Below are positions 3,625 to 40,692 of a DNA stretch of 64,000 nucleotides, piece after piece. This stretch comes from Gemmatimonadota bacterium (GTDB lineage Bacteria > Gemmatimonadota > Gemmatimonadetes > Gemmatimonadales > GWC2-71-9). The translations under genes were made by a program, and so were the position numbers. The notes under the pieces are model-generated. The model was not told the origin of the DNA, did not search any database, and was given only the letters and a program-made list of their open reading frames with translations. Positions within the stretch are counted from its first letter, which is position 1, and each line of letters begins with the position of its first letter. The stretch is taken from positions 4,095 through 68,094 of the forward strand of contig JAEUJH010000300.1 in assembly GCA_016794825.1 (NCBI GenBank). The letters are read 5' to 3'.

Positions 3625-3642
3625 TCCGGAGGGGAGGGAAGG

Positions 3643-3717
3643 ATGGCTAGTATACGGCGCGCCGGGAACCCCGTCCAGAGTGGCGGCGAGGCCGCACCCG
3701 GTCGGGGGGTGGCGTGA
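3643..3717 (+). CDS. Candidate 24-codon leader ORF coupled to the ABC permease
   Basis: A purine-rich SD run GGAGGGGAGGGAAGG (3629-3642) directly precedes ATG 3643. The ORF (MASIRRAGNPVQSGGEAAPGRGVA) ends at TGA 3715-3717, overlapping the permease GTG start at 3714 (GTGA). Confidence 0.2.
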   Translation: MASIRRAGNPVQSGGEAAPGRGVA

Positions 3718-5794: not shown

Positions 5795-5837
5795 GTGTTG
5801 TGTTCTCGCAACGGCGTTGCGTTGGAGTTACACTTTG

Positions 5838-23249: not shown

Positions 23250-23408
23250 GTGAACCTCGCGGCGCTCGTCGCGCAGCTCCGCGAGCTCGGCGTAACGCTG
23301 TGGCTCGAGGGCGATCGGCTCCGCTTCGCGGCACCGCCCGGGCGGCTCACGCCCGAGTTGCGGGAGGCCATGAAGCAGCACCGCCAGGAGCTGGTCGAAC
23401 TCCTGGCC
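23250..23408 (+). other. N-terminal beta-hairpin (TubC-type) docking domain
   Basis: MNLAALVAQLRELGVTLWLEGDRLRFAAPPGRLTPELREAMKQHRQELVELLA matches the TubC N-terminal docking pattern (L..L...GV.LW.EGD.LR..AP.G.LT.ELR..L..HK.EL..LL). Confidence 0.8.
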
Positions 23409-26400
23409 ACGGCCGCTGGCGCCGAGGTCGCGGCGTTGCCGCCGGCCGACCGCAACGGCCCGCTGCCGCTCAGCTTTGCCCAGCAGCGGCTCTGGCTGTT
23501 GGACCAGATGGTGCCGGACCGGGGCGTGTACAACATGGCCACCGCGGTCCGCCTGGTCGGTCCGCTCGATCGGCCCGCGCTGGAGCGGGCCGTCCTCGAG
23601 GTTCAACGCCGGCACGAGAGCCTCCGGACGACGTTCCAGCTCGATGCCGGGCGTCCAGTACAGCGGATCGCCGGGGACGGCGTCCCGGCGATGGTGTTGG
23701 ACTGGAGCGCGGAAGTTGGGACCCCGGGGCTCGGTGGCGGCCGGCTGGTCGACGAGCGGCTGGTGGCGCTCGCCTCGGAGTCGTACCGGCAGACCTTCGA
23801 CCTCGCCCGCGGCCCCCTGTTCCGCGCGACGATCGTCGTCCTCGGGCCCGAGGAGCACGCCCTGCTGCTGGCGTGCCATCACATCGTGAGTGACGGCATC
23901 TCGGAGCAGATCGTCTTCGGCGAATTGGCGGTGCTGTACGCGGCCTTCGCGGCGGGCCGGGAGTCGCCCCTGGCGCCCCTCGCGCGACAGTATGCCGACT
24001 TCGCGAGTTGGCAACGGGGTCAGCAGGCCGGCGGCGAACTCGAACGGCAACTCGAGTATTGGACTCGACGTCTGGCCGGCGCGCCCGCGATGCTCGAGTT
24101 GGCCACCGATCGCAAGCGCCCCGCGGTCCGGACGTTCCACGGGGCCACCGCGCCGTTCGCGTTGTCGGCGGAGACGAGCCGGGCCATCGACGGGTTCGCG
24201 AGGGACCATGGTGCCACGCCGTTCATGGCGCTGCTCGCCACGTTCGGGGCCCTGCTCCAGCGGTTCGCGCGCCAGGATGACATTCTGGTCGGGTCGCCCC
24301 TGGCCGGTCGGGATCGGTCGGAACTGGAGCCGATGGTCGGCTTCTTCGTCAACACTCTCGTGCTCCGGATCGAGCTGACCGGACAACCGACCGGGCGGGA
24401 CCTCCTCGCGCGGGTGCGCGAAACCGTGCTCGGCGCGTTCGGCCACGCCGACGTGCCGGTCGAGCAGGTGGTGGAAGCGCTCCGGATTCCCCGCCGACTG
24501 GACGCCAACCCGCTCTTTCAGGTGATGTTCGGCCTGGAACCGCCCGCAGGCCCTCCGGCGCCGTTCGGAACCTGCCGGGTCGAGCCGATCGGTTTCCAGG
24601 GATCGGTGGCCAAGTTCGATCTGACCTGGTCGATGGCCCCGACGGCGACCGGCTACGCCGGCGTCGTCGAGTACAACACCAATCTGTTCGACCGGACGAC
24701 CATCGACCGAATGATCGAGGTCTTCCGGGCGCTCGCGGACGGGATGGCCCGCCGACCGACGGTTCCGATTGCCGAGCTTCCGCTCCTCGATCCCGCGGCC
24801 CGCTCGACCCTGCTCGCCCTGGGCCAGGGGTCGTCATCCCGGTACCCCGAGGATCCGGCACCACGGCTGTTCGAGGCCTGGGTCCGGCGGTGTCCCGACG
24901 CCATCGCCGTCGAGTACGATGGCGTCGAGGTGACGTATCGAGAGCTCAACGCGCGGGCCAATCGGCTGGCCCGGTTCCTTCGGGCCCGCGGCATCGGTCC
25001 GGACGTGCCGGTGGCGCTCTGCCTGCCCCGGGGCGTCGACCTGATCGTCGCGATGCTGGGCACGCTCAAGGCCGGAGGCGCCTACGTCCCGCTCGATCCC
25101 GAGCATCCCGCCCCCCGGCAACGGCACGTTCTCGCCGATACCGGTGCCCCCCTCGTGCTCACGACCGAGGCGCTGGCCGATTCGCTCGGGGTCGACATCG
25201 CCAGCCGTCGGTTCCGCCTCGATGCGGACTGGGATCAGGTCGCGGGCGAGTTGCCGGACGACCTCGAGCCGATCACCGGGCCGGAGCACCTGGCGTACGT
25301 CATCTACACCTCGGGATCGACCGGGAAGCCCAAGGGCGTCGCGGTGCCGCTCCGCGCCATCAATCGGCTGGTGTTCGAGACGAACTACGTCGACCTGGCG
25401 CCGGCCGATCGGGTGGCCCAGGCGGCGAGCGCCACGTTCGACGCCGCCACGTTCGAGATCTGGGGTGCCCTGCTCCATGGCGCTCGCGTGGTAGGCATCC
25501 CGCGCGACGTGTCACTCGACCCGGCACGCCTGGTCGCGACGCTTCGCGAACGGCAGGTCACGATCCTGTTCCTGACCACGGCGCTCTTCAACCAGGTCGC
25601 CCGGCTGATCCCCGATGGGTTCCATCACCTGCGGTACCTCCTGTTCGGGGGCGAGGCCGTGGATCCGAAGTGGGTCCGCGCCGTGCTGGAGGCGGGGGGA
25701 CCGACGCAGCTGCTCCACGTGTACGGGCCCACGGAGTGCACCACGTTCGCGACCTGGTGGCCGGTGACCGAGGTGTCCCCGGACGCGACCACCGTCCCGA
25801 TCGGCCATCCGATCGCGAACACGGTGGCCCACGTCCTCGACGCCAAGCGGGAACCGGTGCCCCTGGGCGTGCCGGGAGAGTTGTACCTGGGCGGGGATGG
25901 TCTGGCCCGGGAGTACCTGAATCAGCCGGAACAGACGGCGGCTCGGTTCGTTCCGAACCCGTTTGGACCCGGCCGCCTGTATCGCACGGGCGATGTGGTG
26001 CGGCGCCGACCCGACGGCGCCATCGAGTTCCTCGGCCGGGTCGACTTCCAGGTCAAGATCCGCGGTTTTCGGGTGGAACTGGGCGAGATCGAGGCCGCGT
26101 TACTCGAGATCCCCGGGATCCACGAAGCCGTCGTCATGGTCCGCGAGGACGTTCCGGGTGACCGGCGGCTGGTCGGGTACTACGCGGCCGATCCGTCGGT
26201 GGCTCCAGCGTCGCTCCGAACGACCCTTCGGGACCGATTGCCGGGGTACATGGTGCCCGGGGCGTTGGTGCCGATGCCGTCCCTCCCGCTCAACGTCAGC
26301 GGCAAGGTCGATCGCGCCGCCCTGCCACCGCCCGATCACCGGGTCGAGGCGGAACCCGCGGTCGGACCTCGCACCGATCTCGAGGGGACCGTCGCGGCCA

Positions 26401-29400
26401 TCTGGCGGGAGGTGCTCCGACTCGACGAGGTCAGCGTCACCGACAACTTCTTCGACGTCGGCGGGCATTCGCTGCTGCTGATCGAGCTCCACCGCCGGTT
26501 GCTGGAGACGTTTCCGGAGCAGGTCACGGTCGTCCAGCTGTTCGCGAACCCGACCGTCGAGTCGCAGGCCCGCCTGCTCGCCGGCGGCCGGCCCGCCGCC
26601 CCCACTCCACTCTCCGTGGCGCGGACCCGGCGGGCGGCGATCGCCGGCTCGCCAGCCGACGAGCCGATCGCCATCGTCGGCATGGCGGGCCGATTCCCCG
26701 GCGCGGCCGACATCGAGGCGTTCTGGGAAAACCTCAAGGGCGGGGTCGAGTCGATCACCCGGTTCTCGGAGCAGGAGTTGATCGCGGCGGGCTGGCCCCA
26801 AGAAGTGGTTCGCCGACCGGACTTCGTCAGCGCCCGGGGGGTACTCGACGGGGTCGAACTGTTCGACGCGGGGTTCTTCGGGTACTCCGCCCGGGAGGCC
26901 GACCTGACCGATCCGCAGCAGCGTCTCTTCCTCGAGTGCTGCCACGAGGGACTCGAACGAGCCGGGTACGACCCGGCCCGGTTCGACGGACCGATCGGCG
27001 TGTTCGGCGGCTGCGGCCCGAACGCCTACGCGGAGCATCTCCGCGGGCATCCCGCCGTGCTCGCGGTCGGCGCAATGCAGTTCCTGCTGGCGAGCGATCG
27101 GACCTTCCTCGCGACCCGGGCCTCCTACAAGCTCGACCTCCGCGGACCGAGCCTCAACGTCCAGACCGCCTGCTCGACGTCGCTGGTCGCCGTGCACGTC
27201 GCCTGCCAGAGCCTGCTCCGGCGGGAGAGCGATCTCGCGCTGGCCGGGGGCGCCGCCGTCAGCGTTCCGACCGTCGACGGTTACTTCTATCAGGAGGACG
27301 GCATCCTGTCGCCGGACGGCCGCTGCCGGCCGTTCGACGCGGACGCCCGAGGCACGGTCGGTGGCAACGGAGTGGCCGTGGTGGTGCTCCAGCGGCTGAG
27401 CGATGCGGTGCGGGACGGCGCCACGATCCATGCCGTGATTCGCGGCTCGGCCATCAACAACGACGGGTCGAACAAGGTCGGATTCACCGCGCCGAGCGTC
27501 GAAGGCCAGGCTGAGGCCATCGCGACGGCGTTGGCGGCCGCCGGCGTCGAGCCCGAGACGATCGGATACGTCGAGACCCACGGTACGGCCACCACGCTCG
27601 GCGACCCGATCGAGATCGAGGCGCTGACGGCGGCCCACGGCGGTGGCGTCCCGGGCCGTTGCGCCATCGGATCGGTCAAATCCAACATCGGGCACCTCGA
27701 TTCCGCGGCGGGCGTGGCTGCCTTGATCAAGACGGCCCTGTGCCTGGAGCACGGCACCTTGGTGCCGAGCCTCCACTACAGCCGACCGAATCCGCGGATC
27801 GACTTCGCCGGATCGCCGTTCGCCGTCAGCACCGAGACCCGGGCCTGGCCGGTCGATCGGGGCCGACTCCGCCGCGCCGGCGTGAGTTCGTTCGGCATCG
27901 GCGGCACCAACGCGCACGCCGTCCTGGAGGAACCACCGGTCCGGGCCCCTTCGACGCCGGGCCGATCCCGCCAGATCCTGACGCTGTCGGCCAAGACGCC
28001 GGCCGCACTCGAGGCTGCCTCGGATCGTCTCGCCACGTTCCTCGAGTCGCACCGCGGCGAATCCCTCGCCGACGTCGCCTACACGCTGCAGATCGGTCGG
28101 TCGGAGTATGCCCACCGCCGATCGGTGGTCGCGGTCGACGCCACCGAGGCGATCTCGGGCCTCCGCGACCCCCGGCACCGGGCGAGCACCACGGGACAGG
28201 CCCGAGGCCGGCGCGGCGTGGTATTCATGTTCCCGGGCCAGGGTGCCCAGTTCGTGGGGATGGGCCGCGAACTCTACGACGCCGAGCCGATCGTCCGGGC
28301 CACGATCGACGAGTGCGCGGCATTGACGACCGCTCGAGCGGGGTTCGATCTCCGCCACGCGCTCTATCCGTCCGACGGCAGCACGTCGGAAACCGAGGCC
28401 CGCCTGCGTCGCACGCTCGCGGCCCAACTCGGGCTGTTCTCCGTCGAACTGGCCCTGGCCCGCCTCTGGATGACCTGGGGCGTCCGGCCCGTGGCATGTA
28501 TCGGTCACAGCATCGGCGAGTACGTCGCCGCTTGCGTGGCGGGCGTCCTGTCACTGCCGGATGCCCTCGAACTGGTCCTCGTTCGCGGTCGGCTGATGGA
28601 ACAGGCGCCGGCCGGCGCGATGATCGCCGTGCCGCTGGCGGAAACGGCCCTGGCCCCTCGGCTCGGTGACGACCTCTGGCTCGCCGCCGTCAACGGTCCC
28701 GAGATGTGCGTCGTCTCCGGCGCCGAGGCCCGGATCGCCGCTTTCGCGGACCAGTTGCGGCGCGAGGGAGTCGAGTCGCGCCCGCTGCTCACGGCCGGCG
28801 CCTTCCACTCCGGGCTGATGGATGCCGTCAAGGCGCCCCTCGCCGCCGCAGCCGCCGCCATTCCGCACCACCCGCCGGCCATCCCGTACCTCTCGAACGT
28901 GACCGGGACCTGGGCGGGCCCCGAAATCAGCGATCCCGAGTACTGGGCCAATCACCTCAGGGGAACGGTGCGGTTCGACCCCGGCATCGCGACGCTGCTC
29001 GACTTCGGCGCCGCGGCGTTCCTCGAAGTGGGCCCCGGACGAACCCTGAGTTCCCTGGTGCGCCGCCGAGCAACCGCCGCGGCGGAAGTGCTCGTTGTCC
29101 CGTCGCTGCCGTCCACACCCGACGCGGGCGGGCCCCCGGAAACGATCGACCACGTCCTCGGCCGGCTGTGGGCCGCCGGAACGCCGGTCGAGTGGCGAGA
29201 GTACCACGCTGGTGAATCCCGGCGACGCGTCCCCCTCCCGACCTATCCCTTCGAGCGCCAACGGCACTGGATCGAGGGCACCGGTGTCGCCGTCAGCGCG
29301 CCGGTTGCCACCGACAGACGCGCCGACGTCCGCGACTGGTTCTACGTCCCGACCTGGACCCGCACGGCGCCGCTGCAATCGATCCGGGGGCGCTTCGACG

Positions 29401-31220
29401 ACTGCTGGCTCGTGTTCGCGGATCGTCGCGGAGTGGCGCGAGGCGTTGCCGACCGGCTCGAGGCGGATGGAGCCACCATCGTCACGGTCCGTCCGGGCGA
29501 GGCCTATCGCCGGGCCGGCGAGCGCGACTTCGTGCTCCGCCCCGGCGACTCGGCTGGATACCAGACCCTGGCCCGCGCGCTGGCGGAGACCGGCATCGTC
29601 CCGAGCCGTCTGCTCCATGCCTGGGCGCTCGACGCGACCGACGCGCCCCGCGCCACCGACCTCTCAAGCGGATTCGACAGCCTGCTCGACACGCTCCGCG
29701 CGCTCGAGCCGTGGGCGCGCTCGACGACGTTGGAGGGCCTGATCCTCACCTGTCAGGTCCACGCCGTCACCGGGATCGAGGACCTGCGACCAGCCAACGC
29801 CGCGGTCCAGGGGCTGTGTCAGGTTGCCGGACAGGAGAGCCCGAACGTCCGCCTCGGAACCGTCGACCTCGAGTGGCCCCTGCCGGAGGGCACCGATCGC
29901 GACGACGTGATCACCCGCCTCGCGGACGAGGCTCGAGCTCCCGTCGCGACCGCCCCCACTGCCTACCGGGGCCGCGCCCGCTGGACCCTTCGGTTCGATC
30001 CACTTCCCCTCGATCCCGTGGGGCCGGCGACCAGGCTCCGCGAGCGCGGCATCTACGTCATCACGGGCGGATTCGGTGGCGTTGGCTTGGCGCTGGCCCA
30101 CCACCTCGCCGAGCGCTATCGGGCTCGCCTGGCGCTGATCGGCCGGACGCCGCTGCCGCCCCGCGACGAGTGGCCCCGCTGGCGTGATCGACAGGGCGCC
30201 GACGCGGTCACGGCTCGCCGGATCCGCGCGGTCGAAGCGCTCGAGGCCGCCGGCGCCGAGGTCCTGCCGCTCGGCGCCGACGTGGCCGACGTCGTCCAGC
30301 TCCAAGCGGCCTTCGACGAGATCGGCCGTCGGTTCGGCGCCCCGCATGGGGTGATTCACGGGGCGGGGACGACTGGCGGTCCCTCGATCGCCCCGATCCC
30401 CGAACTGACGGTCGAGGCGTGCCGGGCTCAGTTCCATCCCAAGATGGACGGCACGCTCGCCCTTGCCGCGGTTCTGGGCGACACCCCGCTCGACTTCTGC
30501 CTGTTGACCTCCTCGCTTTCGACCGTCCTCGGTGGCCTCGAGTTCGCGGCCTACGCGGCGGCCAATCACGTCGAGGACGCCCTCGCCGACCAACGGAGTC
30601 TCGCCGCGCGAGGACCGTGGATCAGCGTGAACTGGGACGGTTGGCATCTGGGTGAAGAGCCGGTCGATCCATCAGCCCGCGGCGCCGGGCGGTTCGCGAT
30701 GACCCGGGCCGAGGCCGCCGACGCGTTCGAGCGCATCGTTGGGCAGGCCCGGCTCAGTCGAGTCGTGGTCTCGACTGGCGACCTGAGTTCCCGCGCGTTC
30801 GCCCCGGTCGCGGCGACGACCGAGCCGGCATCAGCCCCGCCGACTCACCAGCGTCCTCAGTTGTCGACGACCTTCGTGGCGCCGCGAGACGACCTCGAGC
30901 GGGCCATCGCGGCCACCTGGGAGTCCGTCCTGGGAGTCAGTCCGATCGGGGTGGATGACGACTTCTTCGAGATGGGTGGCGATTCCCTCGTTGCCGTCCA
31001 GCTGATGTTCCGGTTGAGCAACGAACTCTCGGTTCGGTTGACCACCCGCCACCTGTTCACGCTCCCGACCGTCGCCGGACTGGCGGTCACGGTCAGGGCC
31101 AGCCAGAACGAGCAAGGAGCCGCCGCCGACGTCCTCGCGATGATCGATGGGTTGTCGGACGAAGAGGTGCAGCGTCTGCTGGCGGAAACCGACCCCGACG
31201 GAACCCCGGGGATGCCATGA
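23250..31220 (+). CDS. Hybrid NRPS-PKS: TubC-type docking domain - C - A(Ile-like) - PCP - KS - AT(malonyl-type) - KR - ACP
   Basis: GTG start. C domain LSFAQQRLWL and HHIVSDG. A domain YTSGSTGKPKG, HVYGPTE, YRTGDVVRR, SGKVD, with hand code DAFFLGVTFK (Ile-like). PCP motif FFDVGGHSLL (Ser at 26469-26471). KS motifs [19 protein letters not shown] (Cys at 27171-27173), HGTATTLGDP and NIGHLD. AT motifs FPGQGAQ, GHSIGE (Ser at 28509-28511) and GAFHS. KR motifs GIYVITGGFGGVG, HPKMDG and AAYAAAN. ACP motif FFEMGGDSLV (Ser at 30984-30986). Confidence 0.95.
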   Translation: MNLAALVAQLRELGVTLWLEGDRLRFAAPPGRLTPELREAMKQHRQELVELLATAAGAEVAALPPADRNGPLPLSFAQQRLWLLDQMVPDRGVYNMATAVRLVGPLDRPALERAVLEVQRRHESLRTTFQLDAGRPVQRIAGDGVPAMVLDWSAEVGTPGLGGGRLVDERLVALASESYRQTFDLARGPLFRATIVVLGPEEHALLLACHHIVSDGISEQIVFGELAVLYAAFAAGRESPLAPLARQYADFASWQRGQQAGGELERQLEYWTRRLAGAPAMLELATDRKRPAVRTFHGATAPFALSAETSRAIDGFARDHGATPFMALLATFGALLQRFARQDDILVGSPLAGRDRSELEPMVGFFVNTLVLRIELTGQPTGRDLLARVRETVLGAFGHADVPVEQVVEALRIPRRLDANPLFQVMFGLEPPAGPPAPFGTCRVEPIGFQGSVAKFDLTWSMAPTATGYAGVVEYNTNLFDRTTIDRMIEVFRALADGMARRPTVPIAELPLLDPAARSTLLALGQGSSSRYPEDPAPRLFEAWVRRCPDAIAVEYDGVEVTYRELNARANRLARFLRARGIGPDVPVALCLPRGVDLIVAMLGTLKAGGAYVPLDPEHPAPRQRHVLADTGAPLVLTTEALADSLGVDIASRRFRLDADWDQVAGELPDDLEPITGPEHLAYVIYTSGSTGKPKGVAVPLRAINRLVFETNYVDLAPADRVAQAASATFDAATFEIWGALLHGARVVGIPRDVSLDPARLVATLRERQVTILFLTTALFNQVARLIPDGFHHLRYLLFGGEAVDPKWVRAVLEAGGPTQLLHVYGPTECTTFATWWPVTEVSPDATTVPIGHPIANTVAHVLDAKREPVPLGVPGELYLGGDGLAREYLNQPEQTAARFVPNPFGPGRLYRTGDVVRRRPDGAIEFLGRVDFQVKIRGFRVELGEIEAALLEIPGIHEAVVMVREDVPGDRRLVGYYAADPSVAPASLRTTLRDRLPGYMVPGALVPMPSLPLNVSGKVDRAALPPPDHRVEAEPAVGPRTDLEGTVAAIWREVLRLDEVSVTDNFFDVGGHSLLLIELHRRLLETFPEQVTVVQLFANPTVESQARLLAGGRPAAPTPLSVARTRRAAIAGSPADEPIAIVGMAGRFPGAADIEAFWENLKGGVESITRFSEQELIAAGWPQEVVRRPDFVSARGVLDGVELFDAGFFGYSAREADLTDPQQRLFLECCHEGLERAGYDPARFDGPIGVFGGCGPNAYAEHLRGHPAVLAVGAMQFLLASDRTFLATRASYKLDLRGPSLNVQTACSTSLVAVHVACQSLLRRESDLALAGGAAVSVPTVDGYFYQEDGILSPDGRCRPFDADARGTVGGNGVAVVVLQRLSDAVRDGATIHAVIRGSAINNDGSNKVGFTAPSVEGQAEAIATALAAAGVEPETIGYVETHGTATTLGDPIEIEALTAAHGGGVPGRCAIGSVKSNIGHLDSAAGVAALIKTALCLEHGTLVPSLHYSRPNPRIDFAGSPFAVSTETRAWPVDRGRLRRAGVSSFGIGGTNAHAVLEEPPVRAPSTPGRSRQILTLSAKTPAALEAASDRLATFLESHRGESLADVAYTLQIGRSEYAHRRSVVAVDATEAISGLRDPRHRASTTGQARGRRGVVFMFPGQGAQFVGMGRELYDAEPIVRATIDECAALTTARAGFDLRHALYPSDGSTSETEARLRRTLAAQLGLFSVELALARLWMTWGVRPVACIGHSIGEYVAACVAGVLSLPDALELVLVRGRLMEQAPAGAMIAVPLAETALAPRLGDDLWLAAVNGPEMCVVSGAEARIAAFADQLRREGVESRPLLTAGAFHSGLMDAVKAPLAAAAAAIPHHPPAIPYLSNVTGTWAGPEISDPEYWANHLRGTVRFDPGIATLLDFGAAAFLEVGPGRTLSSLVRRRATAAAEVLVVPSLPSTPDAGGPPETIDHVLGRLWAAGTPVEWREYHAGESRRRVPLPTYPFERQRHWIEGTGVAVSAPVATDRRADVRDWFYVPTWTRTAPLQSIRGRFDDCWLVFADRRGVARGVADRLEADGATIVTVRPGEAYRRAGERDFVLRPGDSAGYQTLARALAETGIVPSRLLHAWALDATDAPRATDLSSGFDSLLDTLRALEPWARSTTLEGLILTCQVHAVTGIEDLRPANAAVQGLCQVAGQESPNVRLGTVDLEWPLPEGTDRDDVITRLADEARAPVATAPTAYRGRARWTLRFDPLPLDPVGPATRLRERGIYVITGGFGGVGLALAHHLAERYRARLALIGRTPLPPRDEWPRWRDRQGADAVTARRIRAVEALEAAGAEVLPLGADVADVVQLQAAFDEIGRRFGAPHGVIHGAGTTGGPSIAPIPELTVEACRAQFHPKMDGTLALAAVLGDTPLDFCLLTSSLSTVLGGLEFAAYAAANHVEDALADQRSLAARGPWISVNWDGWHLGEEPVDPSARGAGRFAMTRAEAADAFERIVGQARLSRVVVSTGDLSSRAFAPVAATTEPASAPPTHQRPQLSTTFVAPRDDLERAIAATWESVLGVSPIGVDDDFFEMGGDSLVAVQLMFRLSNELSVRLTTRHLFTLPTVAGLAVTVRASQNEQGAAADVLAMIDGLSDEEVQRLLAETDPDGTPGMP
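26660..31100 (+). other. PKS module KS-AT-KR-ACP (no DH or ER)
   Basis: KS about 26660-27940, AT about 28215-29100, KR region about 29330-30660, ACP about 30880-31100. The catalytic Cys/His/His of the KS and the K/S/Y/N of the KR are all present. Confidence 0.9.
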
Positions 31221-34200
31221 CCGATTCAACCAGGCGCCCGACCGATCCGGCGGCGGCGGCGCGGGACCGCCTCGAACTGGCCCGGCGGCTCGCCCTGCAG
31301 AAGAAACGGGCGGCAGAGGGCTCGATCGTCCCCCGGGGCGGATCCGGCGACGCGCCCTTGTCCTTTGCCCAGGAGCGGCTCTGGTTCGTCCATCAGCTCG
31401 ACCCGACCAGCCCCGCCTACAACGTGGCGGCCCTGATCCCGATCAGCGACGAGCACGATGCGGGCGCCGTCGAGGGAGCCATCCAGCGACTCACTGTCCG
31501 TCATCCGGCCTTGCGGACGGTATTTCCGGCCGTCGACGGGGTCCCGGTCCAACGGGTCCTGCCGGCGGTGGCGGTCCCGTTCGAGACCCATGACTTCCTC
31601 GAACTCGACCTCGACGATCGGGTCGCGGCGCTCGATCGGATCTACAAGGACCTGAGCAATCGACCCTTCGACCTCGAGTCGGGACCGATCATCCGGGCCG
31701 CCCTCATCGCGGTCGAACGGACCTACCAGTACCTCGCCCTGGTGATCCATCACATCGCGGTCGATGGCTGGTCCATCCATATCCTCACCCGCGACCTGGC
31801 GGCCCTCCTCGCCTCGCCCGGCCAGGAGCCGTCGGCGGGGTCGAATCGCCCCCCGATCGACTACGTCGACTACGCGGTCTGGCAGCGCAACCGGTTTGCG
31901 CGGGGCGATTTCGAAGAGGCGGTCGAGTACTGGGACCGAACGTTGGCTGGGGCCACCGCGCTCCGCCTGGCCACCGACCGACTCCGACCGGCCCAGCCCA
32001 GCGCTCACGGGGCCCGCGAGTCCGTCGTGGTGCCGACAGCGATCGCCAGCGGGCTTGCCGCCACCGCTCGCAACGAGCGCGCCACGCCGTTCATGGTGGG
32101 CCTGGCCGCGTTCAACCTGATGCTCGCCCGCTGGACCGGACAACGCGACATCGTGGTCGGGATCCCGGTTGCCAACCGCGATCGGCCGGAACTGACGGAC
32201 GTCGTCGGCTTCTTCGTGAACATGATCGTGGCTCGCACCGATTTGACTGGCGCTGCCACGGGTCGGGAAGTTCTTCAGCGAACCCAGGCGACCGCCCGCC
32301 AGGCGCTGGCGCACCAGGAAATGCCGTTCGAGAAGGTCGTCGCCCGACTCCGCGGCGATCGGGACCCGATCAGGAATCCCCTCTTCCAGGTCACGTTCGC
32401 CACCGAGGTGGCGCACCAAGCCCTGACCCAGCCCCGCCTCGACACCGCGGCTCAGTCGGTTGCCGACGTCACGGTACGGTTCGATCTCGAGGTGTCGCTG
32501 GGAATTCGGGGGGACCTCGTCGAGGCGGCCATCAACTATCGCACCGAGTTGTTCGATCAGGCCACCATTCGGCGGCTGCTCGAGGCGTTCGTCGCGGCGA
32601 TGGGCGACCTCGCGGCCGACCTCGATCGGCCGCTTCCGGTGAACGCTCCGCCTGAATCGTCGATGTCGACCGCTGATTTCCTCCGGCACCTTCGCGGTCT
32701 CGACGTCAAGCTTGGCCTCGAGAACGATCGCCTCAAGGTCAACGCGCCACCGGGTGTGCTGACGGACGCCCGCAAGGCCGAGCTCTCCCGGCGGAAGGAC
32801 GAGGTCATGGCGCTGATGCGGGCGGCCGCCACCACCCGGCATCAGCCGCTCACGCCCATTTCCCGGTCTGGCGCGCTCCCGATGTCGGTGCCGCAGCGCC
32901 GGCTCTGGTTCCTCGACCGACTCGCCCCGGGGAGCGCGACCTACACGATCGCCGGCGCCCGCCGCTTCCCGGTCGACATCGACGTCGACGCCTTCAGCCG
33001 CGCGATCGACGAGATCGTGCGCCGGCACGAGTCTCTGCGGACCATCTTCCCGGCCAGCGACGGCGACCCGCGGGTGGTCATCACGCCGCCGGCCGGCCCG
33101 GTCCTCCAGCAGGTCGACCTTCGCGCCGTCCCGGAGGCCGAGCGGGCGGCGGTCGCCGCCAAGCTCGCCGCCGACGTGGCGCGGCTGCCGTTCGATCTCG
33201 CCCGCGGCCCCCTGTTCCGGGCCGCCCTCATTCGCCTCGGTCCGGCCGACTTCGTCTTCGCGTTCGCGATGCACCACATCATCTCGGACGGCTGGTCGAT
33301 GGTGCTTCTGGGTCGAGAACTCGGCGTCCTCTACAGCGCGTTCGCGGCCGGCCAGCCATCGCCGCTCCCCGAGCTCACGATCCAGTACGTTGACTACGCG
33401 CAATGGCAAACCGAGCACCTCGCCGGCGCGGAGATCAGCACCCAGGAGCGGTACTGGCTGGAGCAGCTCGGGGGCCGCCTGCCGGTCCTCCAACTTCCGT
33501 CCGACCGGCCCCGACCGCCGATCCAGTCGTTCCGCGGCGCGCGCCTCCGAACCGAATTGCCGGCGGACCTGATCGACGCGCTCAAGGAGATCGGCCGGGC
33601 GGAGGGCGCCTCGCTTTACATGATGCTGCTCGCCGCCTTCTACACGCTCCTCCATCGCTACACCGGCGACGAAGACCTCATCGTCGGCTCCCCGGTGGCC
33701 AACCGGAGCCGCGTCGACATCGAGCCGTTGATCGGCTTCTTCGTCAACACCCTGGTGCTCCGGGTGCAGGCCGAGCCGACCTTGACGTTCAGGCAGCTGC
33801 TCGGCCGAGTCCGCCAGACCCTGCTCAAGGCACAGGCCAATCAGGATGTCCCCTTCGATCGGCTGGTGGAGGTTCTCAAGCCCGCCCGCGACACCGGACA
33901 TTCCCCGTTGTTCCAGGTGGTCTTCAACTCGCCCAGCGCGCCGGTCGAGACCAGCGGGGGAGGCGACCTCGACTTCGAGCTTGGGACCGCCCGGTACGAC
34001 CTGACGGTGGAGTTCCAGGAGGAACGCGCCACCTCGGCCGACGAGGGGACAGCGGCCTGGCGATCGGCCGGGCTGCGGATGTTCTGGGAGTTCGCGAGCG
34101 ACCTCTTCGACCCGGACACGATCCGTCGGATGCAGGGTCACTACCACCAGTTGCTCCGCGACATCGCCGGCAACCCGGACGCGCCGATCGCCACCGCTCG

Positions 34201-36073
34201 GCCGCTAACCGATCCGGAGCGGGGCCGACTGACCAGCGGCGAGGCACCGACTCCCGTCGATCACGACCGAACCGACCGACTCGTCGACCTGCTCGCCCGG
34301 CAGGCGGACGCGACACCCGACGCCATTGCCGTCGTGCATCGCGAGGCGCAGGTCACCTACCGGGAGCTCCACGCCCGGGCCAACCGGCTCGCTCGAGAAC
34401 TGCAGCGAATGGGCGTCGGCCCCGACCGCCTGGTCGGCGTATGCCTCGAGCGGTCGGTCGACATGGTGGTGGCGGTGCTGGCGGTCCTGAAGGCGGGGGG
34501 CGCCTACGTACCGCTCGACCCGTCGTTCCCGGCCGACCGGCTCCGTTTCATGGCCAGCGACGCCAAACTGATCGCCCTGATCACCACCGACCCGTTGCGG
34601 CACCTCGTCGGTGCGTTGGAGGGCGCGGTTCTCTGCCTCGACCGCGACGCGTCGCGGCTCGCGGAGCTCGATACCACGCCGCCGCCGAGCCAGGCGACGG
34701 CCGGTTCGCTGGCGTACGTGATCTATACGTCGGGCTCGACCGGTCGACCCAAGGGCGTCGCGATCGAACATCGATCGGTCGTCAACTTCCTCCGTGCCAT
34801 GATCCGCGAACCCGGCCTTCGCGACACCGACCGACTGCTCTCGGTGACGACACTGTCGTTCGACATCGCCGGCCTCGAACTGTACCTCCCGCTCGTCACC
34901 GGCGCCCGGGTCGTCCTCGCCGACCGAGCCGTCGCCACCGACCCGTCTCAGCTGCTCGAACTGCTGGAATCCTCCGGGGCGACCGTGATGCAGGCGACGC
35001 CAGCCACCTGGCGGTTGCTGATCGAGGGAGGGTGGCAGGGCACCGCCGGTCTGACGGTGCTCTGCGGCGGCGAGTCCCTTCCCCGCGAGCTGGCCGAGCA
35101 ACTGCTCACCCGGGCGGCGGCGGTGTGGAACATGTACGGACCCACGGAGACGACGATCTGGTCGATGATGCACCGGGTCACCAGTGGCCAGGGCGCGGTG
35201 CCGATCGGCCGGCCGATCGCCAATACCACGGCGTATCTGCTCGACCGCAACCAACAGCCCGTGCCGCCGCTGGTCCCCGGCGAACTGTTCCTCGGCGGCG
35301 AAGGCCTCGCTCGCGGCTATCTCGATCGGCCTGGACTCACAGCCGAGCGGTTCGTGGCCGACCCGTTCGGGGCGGCTGGTCAGCGGCTCTACCGTACCGG
35401 TGACCTGGTGCGGCTTCGCAGCGATGGAACCTACGAGTGGCTCGGCCGCGGCGACGGTCAGACCAAGATCCGAGGGTTTCGGGTCGAGCTCGGCGAGATC
35501 GAGACGGCGCTGGCCGAACTGCCCGGCATCCGGGTGGCGGCGGTGACCGTGCACGAGCCCCGGCCGGGCGATCAGCGACTGGCCGCCTTCCTGGTACCCA
35601 ATCGAGGCGCCCAGCCGAGCGCCCCTGACCTCGCGACCGCGCTGCGGCGCCGACTCCCGGAGTACATGGTGCCGTCCTCATTCACCCTGGTCGAAGCCCT
35701 GCCCCTCACGCCAAACGGCAAGATCGATCGGCGCGCCCTGCCGACGCCGGCCGGGCTCGACGGAGCCCCCGAAGGGGCGACCTGGTTACCACCCGGAACG
35801 GCGACCGAACGGATGATCGCGTCGGTCTGGTCCGACGTGCTGGGCACGGCTCGAATCGGCCTCCACGACAACTTCTTCGACCGAGGTGGCCATTCGCTCC
35901 TGGTCGTTCGGGTTCACGCCCGCCTCGAGAAAATGCTCCCGCACGCTCCCTCTCTGGTCGAGTTGTTCCAGTACCCGACCATCGCCAGCCTCGCCGACCG
36001 AATCGATCGAGGCGGTACCGACGGCACCCTGGCGGACGCGACGGCCCGCGCCCAACGGCAGCGCGACGCATGA
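31217..36073 (+). CDS. NRPS: C - internal TubC-type docking-like domain - C - A(Gly-like) - PCP
   Basis: ATG 31217 overlaps the upstream TGA (ATGA). C1 has LSFAQERLWF and HHIAVDG (31748-31768). C2 has MSVPQRRLWF and HHIISDG (33272-33292). A domain YTSGSTGRPKG, NMYGPTE, YRTGDLVRL, NGKID, with hand code DILQLGMIWK (Gly code DILQLGLIWK). PCP motif FFDRGGHSLL (Ser at 35894-35896). Confidence 0.95.
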   Translation: MTDSTRRPTDPAAAARDRLELARRLALQKKRAAEGSIVPRGGSGDAPLSFAQERLWFVHQLDPTSPAYNVAALIPISDEHDAGAVEGAIQRLTVRHPALRTVFPAVDGVPVQRVLPAVAVPFETHDFLELDLDDRVAALDRIYKDLSNRPFDLESGPIIRAALIAVERTYQYLALVIHHIAVDGWSIHILTRDLAALLASPGQEPSAGSNRPPIDYVDYAVWQRNRFARGDFEEAVEYWDRTLAGATALRLATDRLRPAQPSAHGARESVVVPTAIASGLAATARNERATPFMVGLAAFNLMLARWTGQRDIVVGIPVANRDRPELTDVVGFFVNMIVARTDLTGAATGREVLQRTQATARQALAHQEMPFEKVVARLRGDRDPIRNPLFQVTFATEVAHQALTQPRLDTAAQSVADVTVRFDLEVSLGIRGDLVEAAINYRTELFDQATIRRLLEAFVAAMGDLAADLDRPLPVNAPPESSMSTADFLRHLRGLDVKLGLENDRLKVNAPPGVLTDARKAELSRRKDEVMALMRAAATTRHQPLTPISRSGALPMSVPQRRLWFLDRLAPGSATYTIAGARRFPVDIDVDAFSRAIDEIVRRHESLRTIFPASDGDPRVVITPPAGPVLQQVDLRAVPEAERAAVAAKLAADVARLPFDLARGPLFRAALIRLGPADFVFAFAMHHIISDGWSMVLLGRELGVLYSAFAAGQPSPLPELTIQYVDYAQWQTEHLAGAEISTQERYWLEQLGGRLPVLQLPSDRPRPPIQSFRGARLRTELPADLIDALKEIGRAEGASLYMMLLAAFYTLLHRYTGDEDLIVGSPVANRSRVDIEPLIGFFVNTLVLRVQAEPTLTFRQLLGRVRQTLLKAQANQDVPFDRLVEVLKPARDTGHSPLFQVVFNSPSAPVETSGGGDLDFELGTARYDLTVEFQEERATSADEGTAAWRSAGLRMFWEFASDLFDPDTIRRMQGHYHQLLRDIAGNPDAPIATARPLTDPERGRLTSGEAPTPVDHDRTDRLVDLLARQADATPDAIAVVHREAQVTYRELHARANRLARELQRMGVGPDRLVGVCLERSVDMVVAVLAVLKAGGAYVPLDPSFPADRLRFMASDAKLIALITTDPLRHLVGALEGAVLCLDRDASRLAELDTTPPPSQATAGSLAYVIYTSGSTGRPKGVAIEHRSVVNFLRAMIREPGLRDTDRLLSVTTLSFDIAGLELYLPLVTGARVVLADRAVATDPSQLLELLESSGATVMQATPATWRLLIEGGWQGTAGLTVLCGGESLPRELAEQLLTRAAAVWNMYGPTETTIWSMMHRVTSGQGAVPIGRPIANTTAYLLDRNQQPVPPLVPGELFLGGEGLARGYLDRPGLTAERFVADPFGAAGQRLYRTGDLVRLRSDGTYEWLGRGDGQTKIRGFRVELGEIETALAELPGIRVAAVTVHEPRPGDQRLAAFLVPNRGAQPSAPDLATALRRRLPEYMVPSSFTLVEALPLTPNGKIDRRALPTPAGLDGAPEGATWLPPGTATERMIASVWSDVLGTARIGLHDNFFDRGGHSLLVVRVHARLEKMLPHAPSLVELFQYPTIASLADRIDRGGTDGTLADATARAQRQRDA
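31355..32662 (+). other. Condensation domain C1 (intact HHxxxDG), not followed by an A or PCP domain
   Basis: A full-length C domain of about 435 aa ending ...DLAADLDRPLPVNAPPESS, immediately before the internal docking-like segment. Confidence 0.85.
32663..32818 (+). other. Internal TubC-type docking-like segment beginning with an in-frame ATG
   Basis: MSTADFLRHLRGLDVKLGLENDRLKVNAPPGVLTDARKAELSRRKDEVMALM aligns position by position with the N-terminal docking domain at 23250-23408. It starts at codon 483 (ATG 32663-32665). Confidence 0.75.
32876..34200 (+). other. Condensation domain C2 (intact HHxxxDG), the one paired with the Gly-like A-PCP
   Basis: LPMSVPQRRLWFLDRL ... MHHIISDGWS ... 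ends before the A domain (LLARQADATPDAIAV). Confidence 0.85.
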
Positions 36074-39000
36074 CCAAACACCGCCACGCGGTTGCGATCG
36101 TCGGGATGGCGGGCCGGTTCCCCGGTGCGCCGAACCTGGAGGCCTTCTGGCGCCAACTCCGGGACGGGATCGAGTCGTTCGAGACGTTCTCGGACGACGA
36201 CCTCCGAGCCGCCGGCGTTCCGCCGGCCGTGGCCGCCCAGTCGCACTACGTCCGACGGGGCACCGTCCTCGAGGACGCCGACCGGTTCGACGCTGGGTTC
36301 TTCGGGCTCTCACCCCGGGAGGCGGAAACCATCGATCCACAGCACCGCCTCTTCCTTGAATGCGCCTGGGAGGCCATCGAGGATGCCGGCTATCCGCCCC
36401 TGCACGTGCCCGGCAGCGTCGGGGTCTTCGCCGGGTGCAGCATGAACACGTACCTGCCGAGCGTGCTGGCTCGAAACCCCGAGGCCATGGCAGCCGCCGG
36501 CGGGTACCAGCTGATGCTCGGCAACGACAAGGATTTCCTCACCACCAGGGTGTCGTACAAGCTGAATCTTCGAGGACCGAGTGTCGCCATCCAGACGGCG
36601 TGCTCGACCTCCCTGGTGGCGGTCCAGGCGGCGTACCAGAGCTTGATCAAACAGCAATGTGACGTGGCTCTCGCCGGTGGGGCCTCCGTCACCTTCCCTC
36701 AGCGAGCCGGGTACCTCTATCAGGAAGGCATGATCTTTTCCCCGGACGGTCACTGCCGGCCGTTCGACGCCAACGGGAAGGGCATTCGATCGGGAGCGGG
36801 CGTCGGGATCGTGATGCTGAAGCGGCTCGAGGACGCGCTGGCCGATGGCGACCCGATCCGGGCGGTGATTCGAGGGGCGGCCATCAACAACGACGGATCC
36901 AACAAGGTCGGCTACACGGCGCCGAGCGTGGAGGGACAGGCGGACGTCATCGCCACGGCCCAGGCGCTCGCCCAGGTCGATCCGGCCACGATCGGCTACG
37001 TCGAGGCCCACGGCACCGGGACCCCGCTGGGCGACCCCATCGAAGTCGCCGCACTGACTCGCGCGTTCCGGGCCCGAACGGACCGCCGGGGGTACTGCGC
37101 GCTCGGCTCGCTGAAGAGCAATCTCGGCCACCTCGACGCCGCCGCCGGGGTGGCCGGCCTGATCAAGACCGTCCTGAGCCTCGAGCACCAGGCACTGCCG
37201 CCGAGTCTCAACTTCGTCACACCGAACCCGGCCATCGATTTCGACGACAGCCCGTTCTACGTCAATACCGCGCTCACGCCCTGGCCGGCGGGCGCCGAAC
37301 CGCGCCGCGCCGGGGTGAGTTCGTTCGGCATCGGCGGCACCAACGCCCACGTCGTCCTCGAGGAAGCCCCGGTCCGCCCCTCGACCGACCCGGCCGACGG
37401 CCCGCACCTGCTGGTGCTCTCGGCCCGGAGCCGCCCCGCGCTCGAGACCGCAACCGCCGCGCTGGCCGACCACCTGGCGGCTCGCCCCGATCTCGATCTC
37501 GCCGACGTGGCCTACACCCTCCAGCTCGGGCGAGAGCCGTTTCCGCATCGCCGTGTCATCGTGGCGGCCAGCGTGAGCGAGGCCCTGCAGGCCATCGCGT
37601 CCCGCGACCCGGAGCGGGTCGTGGGTGGCGAAGCCGGCGCCCGCCGGCCGGTGGTGTTCATGTTCAGCGGCCAGGGCAGCCAGCATCGCGACATGGCGCG
37701 GGGGCTCTATCAACGGGAGGCGGCGTTCCGCCGAGCTTTCGATGCCTGCGCCGATCGATTCGTGCCCCACCTGGGCCTCGACCTTCGCGATGCCGTGTTT
37801 CCGGACCCGGCCCACGCCCAAGGCCCCACCGCCGACCTCGACCAGACCAGCCTGACCCAGCCGGCGCTCTTCGCGGTCGAGTACGCGCTGGCCTCGATGT
37901 GGATGGCCCGGGGCGTCGAACCCGAGGCGATGATCGGACACAGTATCGGTGAGTACGCGGCGGCCTGCCTGGCCGGGGTCTTCACCCTCGACGAGGCCAC
38001 CCGATTGGTCGCGCTCCGGGGCCGCCTGATGCAGTCGATGCCGCCCGGCGCGATGCTCTCGGTGTTCCTGCCCGAAGAGGAGGTCCGGCCTCTCCTGGAG
38101 TCGGCCGTGACGGTGGCGGCGGTCAACGCGCCGGGAATGAGCACCGTGGCCGGTCCGGCCGATGCGATCGGCCGACTCGCGGCTACCCTGACCGCGCGCG
38201 GCGTGGAACATCGGGCCCTGCAGACGTCGCACGCGTTCCATTCGGCGATGATGGACCCGATCCTCGCACCCTTCGAGGCCGCGGTTCGCGAATGCACCCT
38301 GGCGGCCCCCGCCCGCCCGTTCATCTCGAACCTGACCGGCACCTGGATCACCGCGGAAGAGGCAACCGATCCGCGGTACTGGGTCAAGCACCTTCGGCAA
38401 CCCGTCCTGTTCGGTCCGGGTTTGAACACGCTGGCCGCCAATCCGGAGCGGATCTACCTCGAAGTCGGCCCTGGAACCGTCCTGGGCACCTTCGCCCGGC
38501 AGACGGTGGGCCGGGCGGGGCGGCCTGCCGTCGTCATCGCGTCGTTACCGCACCCGAAGCACGCGGCCGCGGCCGATCGTCACGCGCTCACGGCTCTTGC
38601 TCGGCTTTGGATCGCGGGAGCGTCGGTCGATTGGCACCAGGTGCATGGGAGCGCCCGTCGCGGCCGGGTCCGGCTGCCCACCTATCCGTTCGAGCGGCAA
38701 CGATACTGGGTGGACCCGGCAGGCTCGTCCGTCGCCGGCGCGCCCTCGGCCCTCGACAAGCGGCCCGACGTGGACGACTGGTTCGCGGCGCCGACGTGGA
38801 CCCGTTCAGCCGCGGTCGACGGTGCGGCCCCCGAACCAGCCGTCGGCCCGTGGCTCCTCTTCGTCGACGATACCGGGATCGGCGCGGCCATGGCCGCCAG
38901 TCTGGTCCGCCACGACCGATTCGTCACCCGGGTCGAGGTCGGCGCCGACTATCAAGAAGTCGGGCCGGATCACTTCCGGATCGATCCCGGCAATCCGGAT

Positions 39001-40692
39001 CACTACCACCGCCTGCTGACCACCCTCGAGAGCAGCGAACGGTCTCCCACGCGGATCGTCCACTTGTGGACGGTCGGAGCACCGTCGGTCGGCGACGACC
39101 GCCTCGCCGCGGCGGATCGAGCCAGGACCCGGGGGCTCCACAGTCTCCTGTTCCTCGCGCAGGCCACCGGCAACCATCCGAGTCAGCGGACCACCTCGTG
39201 GATCGTCGTCTCGAGCGGCGTCCACGCGGTCGTCGACCCGGCGGAGGCCACCGACCCCGAGAAGGCGATCCTGACGGGGATCTGCCAGGTGATTCCGCTC
39301 GAGTACCAGGGCGTGGCCTGCCGAGTCGTCGACCTCGAACTGCCCGTCGAACCAGCGGGCGTCGCGGCGGCCGCCGAACGACTGGTACGCGAAGCGACCG
39401 TGGACCGCAGCGCCAGCACCATCGCGTATCGCGCTGGCCGCCGCTGGGAGCTGACCTACGAGGCCGTGACACTCCGCCGGCGGCCACCCGCGGCGCTCGC
39501 CCGCCGGGAAGGGGGCGTCTACCTGATCACCGGCGGGACGGGAGGATTGGGCCTGGTGTTCGCCGCCAGCCTGGCCTCCGCCGGAGGAACCCTGGTGCTG
39601 ACGTCGCGATCCGGACTGCCCGATCGAAAGGACTGGGACCGCCTGACCGCGGCCGACCCAACGGGGCGGCAGGCGGTCACGTTGGCCGCGATCCGGGAGC
39701 TCGAGAAGAAGGGGACGACGGTCGAAGTCGTAGCCACCGACGCCGGCAACCCCGACGCGGTGCGAGCCCTGGTGACCGAGTTGCGAAGGCGTCTCGGCGT
39801 CATCCATGGCGTGATCCACGCGGCGGGGGTTCCCGGTGGCGGCATGCTCCAGCTCCGGACCCGGGCGCAGATCGACGAGGTCCTGGCCCCGAAGGTCACG
39901 GGAACCCTGGCCCTGCACGAGGCGCTCCAAGGGAATCCGCTCGACTTCTTCGTCCTCTGCTCCTCCATCAACGCGATCCTGACGGGCCCTGGCGGCGCGG
40001 ATTACTGCGCCGCGAACGCGTTCCTCGATGCCTACGCCCACCACCGGCACGGCCGCGGCGACCGCTCGGTGGTGTCCATCAACTGGGATACCTGGCGCGA
40101 CGTGGGAATGGCCGTCAACGCGATCGTCCCCGCCGACCGCGAAGCGGCCAAGGCGGCGAGCCTGGCCACCGGTATCCTGGCCGAAGAGGGAGTTGCCGCG
40201 CTGGGCCGCATCGTCGGCGCCGAACTCCCCCAAGTGGTGGTGTCGACCCGCGATCTCCAGTTGCTCCGCTACCTCGATACACTCGGTCGAATCGCGAGGG
40301 GCGCGACCACTGGGGGCCAGGGCCCCTCCGGCTCGCTCCCGAGCTCAGCGACCTCGCGGCACCAGCGTCCCGACCTTGGGACCGAGTTCGTCCAGCCGGC
40401 CAGCGATGACGAACGCCGAGTGGCGTCGATCTGGGAGGAGTTGCTGGGCATCGATGGCGTCGGCGTCAACGACAACTTCTTCGAGCTCGGGGGCCATTCC
40501 CTGCTGGCGACTCAGGTCCTGGTGCGGATCCGAGATGCCTTCGGGGTGACCATTCCGCTCGAGGCCGTGTTCGACGCGCCGACCGTCGGACAACTGGCCG
40601 ACCGGATCGGCACGCTGCGATGGATTGTGGAATCGAGCCAACCTTCGACCCGCGAGGAGCCGGACGGCCACCGTGAGGAGTTCGAGATTTAG
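36070..40692 (+). CDS. Type I PKS module: KS - AT(malonyl-type) - KR - ACP with C-terminal docking peptide, no TE
   Basis: ATG 36070 overlaps the upstream TGA (ATGA). KS motifs [19 protein letters not shown] (Cys at 36601-36603), [10 protein letters not shown] and NLGHLD. AT motifs FSGQGSQ, GHSIGE (Ser at 37942-37944) and HAFHS. KR motifs [19 protein letters not shown] and [10 protein letters not shown] motif [10 protein letters not shown] (Ser at 40498-40500). The protein ends ...[25 protein letters not shown]. Confidence 0.95.

Follow-up and report, generated by a model that had tools for sequence, protein, structure and literature searches.

Adjacent isostatine-type and 4-amino-3-hydroxybutyryl units predicted from two NRPS/PKS bimodules in a Gemmatimonadota gene cluster

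We analysed a 64,000-nucleotide stretch of DNA (from here on, the window) from an uncultured Gemmatimonadota bacterium (GenBank assembly GCA_016794825.1, contig JAEUJH010000300.1, positions 4,095 to 68,094 of the forward strand), which has a G+C content of ~70% across its whole length and carries a hybrid cluster of nonribosomal peptide synthetase (NRPS) and polyketide synthase (PKS) genes. Pfam scans, motif reading, and one flanking metagenome contig (L097) revealed seven megasynthase genes, all of them co-directional, which are referred to as g0 to g6 (Table 1). ATGA overlaps join g1 to g2, g2 to g3, g4 to g5, and g5 to g6, and a GGAGG ribosome-binding site (RBS) precedes g4; g1 to g6 (6841-40692) therefore look like one NRPS/PKS operon, with the terminating gene g0 upstream of g1. 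A preliminary description of the window had singled out two places at which an adenylation (A) domain and a peptidyl carrier protein (PCP) feed into a ketosynthase (KS), an acyltransferase (AT), a ketoreductase (KR), and an acyl carrier protein (ACP), and had predicted that these two bimodules make two statine-type, i.e. γ-amino-β-hydroxy acid, units: an isostatine-like unit (Ist; 4-amino-3-hydroxy-5-methylheptanoyl) from Ile and a 4-amino-3-hydroxybutyryl unit (GABOB) from Gly. Here we describe the two bimodules, the module that joins them, and the product to which the line as a whole points.

The predicted Ile-malonate and Gly-malonate bimodules

The first bimodule lies entirely within g4, the NRPS half of which spans 23250-26579 and the PKS half 26661-31220, and its A domain (ten-residue code DAFFLGVTFK) and PCP stand immediately upstream of the KS. 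The preliminary description had placed the PKS part at 26660-31100, and Pfam located it there, with the KS starting at nt 26661 and the ACP ending at nt 31085. The second bimodule is divided between two genes: an A domain with the code DILQLGMIWK and a PCP end g5, and the KS of g6 begins seven residues into the next protein. This junction, between the genes starting at 31217 and 36070, was likewise found by Pfam where it had been expected. The reading of the former gene as a plain Gly module held for its A-PCP end, but it had missed two further domains, an additional condensation (C) domain and a docking domain (dock) inside the protein. Domain E-values in the bimodules ran from 7e-35 to 1e-96, a range (in round terms, 1e-35 to 1e-96) that rules out chance matches.

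The codes of the A domains were read via the anchor motifs FDxS, xxP(S/T), GGE, YGPTE, and GK(V/I)D. The same procedure gave DAFWLGGTFK for g0, DVWHISLVDK for g1, and DLTKVGEVGK for g3, which in the published code tables denote Val, Ser, and Asn, respectively; because the extraction returned these textbook codes, we regard the register as validated. By these tables, DILQLGMIWK denotes Gly, and DAFFLGVTFK belongs to the Ile group, since its residue 322 is Val, whereas the codes for Val show Gly at this place. The codes of both bimodules are thus of the amino-acid type. We also noted that the A domain of g2, in which YGPAE replaces YGPTE, has the code DALFMGLTLK, which is of a hydrophobic type and is not known to match any signature.

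Both KSs have the Cys of TACSTS, the His of HGT(A/G)T, and the His of KSN(I/L)GH; the KS of g4 reads HGTAT instead of HGTGT but keeps the His. Both ATs have GQG(A/S)Q, GHSIGE, and the downstream Arg, both KRs have the GGxGxxG NADPH motif, the PK lysine, SS, and Y(A/C)AAN, and the phosphopantetheine serine of GG(H/D)S is kept in all four carrier domains of the two bimodules. The intervals between AT and KR (304-316 aa) matched the KR structural subdomain only (PF21394, NF047870) and contain no HxxxGxxxxP dehydratase (DH) motif, and no DH, enoylreductase (ER), or methyltransferase family matched either PKS half. Motif reading and Pfam thus bore out the expectation that both KRs retain the Lys/Ser/Tyr/Asn residues and that neither module includes a DH or an ER, and the catalytic residues of the KSs are intact as well.

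The assignment of a malonyl extender to both ATs stood only in part. GHSIGE and an xAFH motif are present in both, the Phe of xAFH being the classical malonyl marker, and the AT of g6 reads the canonical HAFH; the AT of g4, however, reads GAFH and has Q-L replacing the usual Q-P. When compared with solved structures, the AT of g4 scored higher against ZmaA (233 bits), a hydroxymalonyl-ACP-specific AT, than against CurL (211 bits), a malonyl AT, and the motif of ZmaA in the alignment, GAAH, has Gly at its first position, as does GAFH. It could be argued from these two likenesses that the PKS module of g4 uses a non-malonyl extender, e.g. hydroxymalonyl-ACP, and would make an α-substituted Ile-derived unit and no isostatine. 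We consider this highly improbable. The AT of g6, despite its HAFH, scored 231 bits against ZmaA (and 241 bits against CurL) and, because this is nearly the score of the AT of g4, the resemblance of the latter to ZmaA appears largely generic. Further, the diagnostic Phe and the GHSIGE of the g4 domain are of the malonyl type, and FkbH/ZmaN-type extender-unit genes did not turn up in a Pfam scan of the larger open reading frames (ORFs) of the window. Malonate is therefore kept as the presumed extender of both ATs, with less confidence for that of g4.

With regard to stereochemistry, the B-type LDD motif is absent from both KRs, which have TGG (g4) and PGG (g6) at that place, and the A-type Trp is absent as well, a Leu being found eight residues before the catalytic Tyr. 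Because neither marker is present, the configuration of the C3 hydroxyl cannot be called from sequence. The solved KR nearest to that of g6 is the bacillaene PksJ KR (PDB 4j1q; E 3.6e-35), which, like the KR of g6, lacks LDD in the alignment. The PksJ KR sits after a Gly module in a hybrid NRPS/PKS protein and reduces a Gly-derived β-keto-γ-aminoacyl intermediate, and its product is dehydrated afterwards. PksJ is, however, a trans-AT enzyme, whereas g6 has a cis AT and no DH.

Table 1. Megasynthase genes, their domains in the two bimodules, and adjoining genes (nucleotide positions count from the first letter of the window)
Feature	Position	Strand	Basis
g0: termination module, truncated by the window start	60-3269	+	Pfam; full copy on L097, gene 1142-5314
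ABC-2 permease	3714-4604	+	Pfam
ABC ATPase	4601-5794	+	Pfam
Type II thioesterase, GHSMG motif	5817-6605	+	Pfam, E 2.4e-52
g1: FAAL-like ligase, KR-like, ACP, C, A (Ser), PCP	6841-14289	+	Pfam; NCBIfam; motif reading
g2: C-A (hydrophobic)-N-methyltransferase-PCP	14286-18809	+	Pfam; sequence reading
g3: C-A (Asn-like)-N-methyltransferase-PCP, WEEGEL tail	18806-23218	+	Pfam; A code
g4: dock-C-A-PCP-KS-AT-KR-ACP, 2656 aa	23250-31220	+	Pfam
g4 TubC_N β-hairpin dock, aa 5-52	23250-23411	+	Pfam
g4 C, aa 72-521, HHIVSDG	23463-24812	+	Pfam (Condensation), E 5.5e-96
g4 A (AMP-binding aa 541-890), DAFFLGVTFK, Ile-like	24870-26306	+	Pfam, E 6.6e-87
g4 PCP	26382-26579	+	Pfam (PP-binding)
g4 KS (ketoacyl-synt aa 1138-1386), Cys/His/His	26661-27779	+	Pfam, E 3.7e-68
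g4 AT (Acyl_transf_1 aa 1658-1954), GHSIGE, GAFH	28221-29111	+	Pfam, E 5.2e-58
g4 KR, aa 2267-2465, K/S/Y/N, no LDD, no Trp	30048-30644	+	Pfam, E 7e-35
g4 ACP, aa 2552-2612	30903-31085	+	Pfam (PP-binding)
g5: C1-dock-C2-A-PCP, 1618 aa	31217-36073	+	Pfam; motif reading
g5 C1, extra full-length C domain, aa 44-480, HHIAVDGWS	31346-32656	+	Pfam; motifs
g5 internal TubC_N dock, aa 483-535	32663-32821	+	Pfam, E 8.2e-13, 48.7 bits vs cutoff 26
g5 C2, HHIISDGWS	32873-34228	+	Pfam; motifs
g5 A (AMP-binding aa 1027-1369), DILQLGMIWK, Gly	34295-35722	+	Pfam; A code
g5 PCP, aa 1534-1596	35816-36004	+	Pfam (PP-binding)
g6: KS-AT-KR-ACP	36070-40692	+	Pfam
g6 KS, aa 7-382	36088-37215	+	Pfam
g6 AT, aa 529-846, GHSIGE, HAFH	37654-38607	+	Pfam; motif
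g6 KR, aa 1149-1344, K/S/Y/N, no LDD, no Trp	39514-40101	+	Pfam; motif
g6 ACP, aa 1450-1513	40417-40608	+	Pfam
β-Lactamase-fold serine hydrolase, SVSK motif, 388 aa	40699-41865	-	Motif; Pfam
Sfp/HetI-type phosphopantetheinyl transferase (PPTase)	41904-42620	-	Family match
Amidohydrolase	42637-43839	-	Family match

Docking elements and the tandem-condensation module of g5

Short acidic C-terminal motifs bind β-hairpin docks via their last five residues (PMC9113145), and docking of such tails to β-hairpin docks occurs at the PKS-NRPS interfaces of histone deacetylase (HDAC)-inhibitor depsipeptide lines (PMC13324335). In the present cluster, g3 and g6 end in short acidic tails (...WEEGEL and ...HREEFEI, the latter at 40654-40689), and N-terminal TubC_N docks were found in g4 (aa 5-52; E 1.3e-16) and g0. 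The C-terminal tail of g4 is helical, carries LSDEEVQRLLAE, and resembles the helical tail of g1 (...EEVQRLLAE... in g4 and ...EVDRLLRELE... in g1); the N termini of g2 and g5 are similar to each other as well, with MTD...(A/L)xRxLA... segments. These helical tails and N termini may represent a second type of docking pair. From the docking elements we infer the subunit order g1-g2-g3-g4-g5-g6-g0.

As shown in Table 1, g5 departs from a plain C-A-PCP module in having two full-length C domains, C1 and C2, with a TubC_N dock between them. Both C domains keep every core motif, and C1 shares only 35-38% identity with each of the other C domains of the cluster, which indicates that it is no recent duplicate. 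The solved neighbours of C1 are the ordinary elongating C domains Txo1/2 (~225-235 bits; Txo2, 235). A dehydrating, epimerising, or cyclising function for C1 was considered and rejected, as its PDB neighbours are elongating domains and the dehydrating AmbE reached 61 bits only. The internal dock opens with an in-frame Met-Ser-Thr, as does the N terminus of g0, and no stop codon precedes it; an internal translation start at Met483 is not supported, as there is no RBS upstream. An assembly or frameshift artefact was also rejected, because the same 1618-aa Condensation-TubC_N-Condensation ORF is called in two other metagenome assemblies (L090 and L093), and the ORFs of g5 and g6 have the same length and architecture in these two and in a third independent assembly (L095).

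We then consider how common such an arrangement is. In 80 related NRPS loci, none of the 23 docks found by a hidden Markov model was internal: all 23 lie at most 95 residues from the start of their ORF, with no C domain ahead of them. A query consisting of the junction only, run against 5.8 billion proteins, gave no match covering more than 48%, in a search the sensitivity of which is limited, as the same-species copies were not returned either. An exhaustive search of representatives for C-dock-C, dominated by giant multi-module NRPSs, yielded one contiguous tandem-C match only, a 5280-aa NRPS (P0213) with two complete tandem C domains (aa 345-1500). The ~110-aa linker between the latter reads as helical and charged and has no dock; tandem C-C modules thus exist elsewhere. 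No description of a C-dock-C module was found for the burkholdac/thailandepsin, hapalosin, thalassospiramide, or nosperin lines, and work on atypical C domains in myxoglucamide was set aside as dealing with a different cluster and different chemistry. Separately, we observed apparent tandem N-terminal docks (aa 10-52 and 68-115) in an NRPS locus (L026; ORF +1, protein offset 1998) of a Hydrogenophaga metagenome-assembled genome (MAG), the first of the two docks being weak (E 0.029). The C1-dock-C2 arrangement is the only unusual part of the line that leads to the two units and, together with the Cys-type thioesterase (TE) described below, is what most deserves to be followed up.

The arrangement bears directly on how the growing chain would be routed. 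One reading is that the Gly module is not colinear, such that C1 would take the chain from g4 and the internal dock and C2 would form a second entry port. If the REEFEI tail of g6 docked there as well as at g0, g5 and g6 would be re-entered and at least two GABOB units would result; if the WEEGEL tail of g3 docked there, the Ile-malonate bimodule would be skipped and some products would have no isostatine. The ratio of three docks (in g0, in g4, and inside g5) to two tails (in g3 and g6) is that of the iterative rhabdopeptide NRPS (PMC9113145). Further, the internal dock is closest to that of g0 (alignment score of 100, as opposed to 77 and 61), with which it shares a basic residue in strand 1 and an Asn in strand 2, positions at which the dock of g4 differs. 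The integrity of C1 and C2, which are 35% identical, the recurrence of the arrangement in three assemblies, and the absence of internal docks from the related loci likewise speak for a second port. A fusion relic, however, explains the same facts: the Met-Ser-Thr with which the internal dock opens, like g0, is as expected of a formerly separate gene, and the similarity between the docks may reflect common descent and not shared partners. With 14 variant codons across g5 and g6 (5 variants in g5, the dock being free of them), the population varies too little for selection to be assessed, and we found no description of such a two-port device. We consider a second entry port unlikely and place well ahead of it the view that g5 is a fusion relic, in which one C domain would be redundant and the product would be that of the colinear prediction. 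Were the second port real, a point of branching or iteration would be built into the line at g5, leading to oligo-GABOB products or to a bypass of isostatine.

Loading, release, and the predicted product

At the beginning of the proposed line, g1 contains, in this order, the remnant of an A subdomain, a FAAL-like ligase, a KR-like domain, an ACP, and then C-A-PCP. Fatty acyl-AMP ligase (FAAL) families of NCBIfam match the loading domain at ~1e-72, and to this extent, at the level of homology, the product may be called a lipopeptide, as in the preliminary description. The KR-like domain has PR replacing the catalytic PK and YTAAS replacing YxxxN and is probably inactive. We also observed, in the N-terminal half of g1 (6841-10260), that the first ~90 aa resemble an orphan C-terminal subdomain of an A domain, which reads SDGTVD where NGKVD is expected.

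At the other end of the line, complete g0 on contig L097 encodes a 1390-aa protein that, by Pfam, consists of a β-hairpin (TubC_N) dock, C, A, PCP, and TE. The TE has GFCMG (2661-2675) instead of GxSxG, which gives it a Cys nucleophile, and its sequence, including GFCMG, is identical in three further assemblies (L097-L099). Cys-type TEs are rare and are linked to the release of strained rings, as in obafluorin and sulfazecin. The line ends in a TE with this unusual nucleophile motif, and Ser, Ist-OH, and GABOB-OH in the predicted chain could each offer a hydroxyl as the nucleophile. It is conceivable that both bimodules work as predicted but that their hydroxyls are not all retained free: one may be used for macrolactonisation by the Cys-type TE, or one may be eliminated by C1, for which no dedicated acceptor is apparent, so that a vinylogous amino acid results. 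An elimination does not fit well with the ordinary elongating neighbours of C1 and its weak match to AmbE, and the sequence gives no pointer to the nucleophile that the TE uses; we consider a loss of the free hydroxyls decidedly unlikely.

The reading that we prefer, and hold to be probable, is that of a colinear line that gives acyl-Ser-NMeXaa-NMeAsn-Ist-GABOB-Val, in which an isostatine-type and a GABOB unit are adjacent. If the cluster is expressed, the FAAL-like domain of g1 would load an acyl starter, to which Ser, an N-methylated hydrophobic residue, and N-methyl-Asn would be added. The WEEGEL tail of g3 would dock onto the β-hairpin dock of g4, and Ile would be added; the KS of g4 would then join the peptidyl-Ile thioester with malonyl-ACP, and the KR of g4 would reduce the β-ketone, leaving a 4-amino-3-hydroxy-5-methylheptanoyl (isostatine-type) unit on the ACP of g4. 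The helical tail of g4 would dock to the N terminus of g5, one of the g5 C domains would link the chain to Gly-PCP, and malonate extension and reduction by g6 would give the GABOB unit. Finally, the REEFEI tail of g6 would dock to the dock of g0, Val would be added, and the TE would release the product, probably as a macrolactone.

The two predicted units follow the accepted rule by which A-PCP-KS-(AT)-KR-ACP makes statine-type residues, as in didemnin, burkholdac, hapalosin, thalassospiramide, and nosperin (PMC12081711), and the KS and KR catalytic residues that it calls for are intact. Several points nevertheless weigh against the colinear prediction. First, the KR-based route to statines has been rationalised from gene clusters alone and has not been experimentally verified (PMC12081711). 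Second, the AT and KR motifs are in part non-canonical, in that the AT of g4 has GAFH and Q-L and scores better against ZmaA than against CurL, and neither the A-type nor the B-type KR class is assignable for g4 or g6. Third, the line has more docks than tails, and g5 combines two apparently functional C domains with a third dock that has no dedicated tail, which makes strict colinearity at the Ist-GABOB junction an assumption. Fourth, no characterised orthologue was found in contig, protein, and literature searches. The preliminary description is thus upheld as to the kind of units that the bimodules would make, with colinearity at g5 and the AT and KR motifs as its weaker parts.

Copies, precedents, and neighbouring genes

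Look-ups of the flanking genes revealed the same DNA, at 99.1-100% nucleotide identity, in at least 10 metagenome assemblies (ENA, JGI, Logan, and NCBI). The NCBI proteins that match the flanking genes exactly are MBL8986306-MBL8986323, on a 74.7-kb contig, and MCC71331xx, on JADZCZ010000421.1, from Gemmatimonadota/Gemmatimonadales MAGs; exact look-ups of the g5 and g6 proteins gave no match. A myxobacterial origin, to which the TubC_N docks, the G+C content, and the Ser/Thr kinases had seemed to point, was rejected on the strength of these flanking matches. A search for an orthologous cluster, with g5 against contigs of one genome per species, gave only generic NRPSs of 35-49% identity among the matches listed, and C1 plus the dock reached at most 44% identity in the 5.8-billion-protein collection. 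In the Gemmatimonadota literature, only metagenomic surveys were found to mention clusters, and no characterised product was found.

The statine chemistry predicted here follows an ordinary, precedented logic, and molecules with two ketide-extended amino acids are already known. The view that two statine-type units in one N-methylated lipopeptide would make an unusual scaffold was overstated, since pepstatin has two, the microsclerodermins have GABOB, and the didemnins have isostatine and a second ketide-extended unit. In the microsclerodermins, GABOB is made from Gly and malonate via an NRPS-PKS pair. These myxobacterial compounds contain γ-amino-β-hydroxybutanoic acid (PMC5132153), as predicted for g5/g6, but their assembly further requires Trp, Sar, an Asn-derived pyrrolidinone, and a β-amino acid of polyketide origin (PMC5132153), for which there are no modules here: the A codes are those of Ser, a hydrophobic residue, Asn, Ile, Gly, and Val, and Pfam detected neither an aminotransferase nor a long PKS.

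The didemnin (did) cluster of Tistrella mobilis has, like g4, an Ile module directly before KS/KR/ACP, with isostatine as the predicted unit (PMC5577590, PMC12081711), and its line also makes an N-methylated, acylated depsipeptide and ends in a TE. In contrast to g4 and g6, each of which carries a cis AT, the did PKS is AT-less and is served by a trans AT (PMC5577590). Modules for Hip, lactate, and Pro are present in the did cluster as well, its module order and phylum are different, and there is no sequence orthology. The possibility that the window corresponds to the didemnin cluster on the Tistrella plasmid was rejected, because tblastn against plasmids gave matches that were all below 60% identity, with no Tistrella among the matches listed, which were mainly cyanobacterial, plus Bradyrhizobium and Methylosinus. 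The burkholdac/thailandepsin, hapalosin, thalassospiramide, and nosperin lines share the 3-hydroxy-4-amino logic (PMC12081711) but differ in the amino acids used and in the rest of the line.

Pepstatin is an N-acyl peptide with two statines (PMC12081711), a number that matches the two units predicted here. Its PKS modules, however, have no KR, and the F420H2-dependent reductase PepI forms the statines once the chain has been assembled (PMC12081711), whereas the PKS modules of g4 and g6 each have their own NADPH-type KR. Finally, the rhabdopeptide system Kj12ABC has three β-hairpin docks and two short acidic tails, as does the present line, and promiscuous pairing leads to iteration there (PMC9113145). 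Its subunits, however, are single NRPS modules with N-terminal docks, whereas here one dock is internal, the line is a hybrid, and iteration is hypothetical.

Genes for a PPTase, a type II TE, and an ABC exporter adjoin the megasynthase genes, the last being the probable function of the permease and ATPase pair at 3714-5794. We also noted that the β-lactamase-fold serine hydrolase lies directly after g6, on the opposite strand and beside the PPTase gene. In NCBIfam it matched "3-succinylated cholic acid synthase" best (E 7e-35), far under the cutoff, and a role in tailoring, resistance, or release is conceivable. Beyond the amidohydrolase gene lie KatG, Fur, Ser/Thr kinases, and housekeeping genes. 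In this part of the window, a 688-aa protein (60103-62169, minus strand) has a LanC-like C-terminal domain (E 7e-21), and a Ser/Thr kinase-TPR protein (57018-59543, plus strand) is encoded beside it, both possibly belonging to a distinct lanthipeptide-type locus.

Statine-type residues mimic the transition state of aspartic proteases. We know of no compound in which an isostatine and a GABOB unit are directly adjacent, and an N-methylated acyl-depsipeptide with such a pair would add a new member to the statine pharmacophore class. It would also be a concrete target from Gemmatimonadota for synthesis from prediction or for heterologous expression. Further, as two compact cis-AT bimodules with the simple substrates Ile and Gly, g4 and g5/g6 would be convenient test cases for the KR-domain route to statines, and the C-dock-C module of g5 lends itself, as a natural experiment, to the study of chain routing by docking elements and condensation domains.

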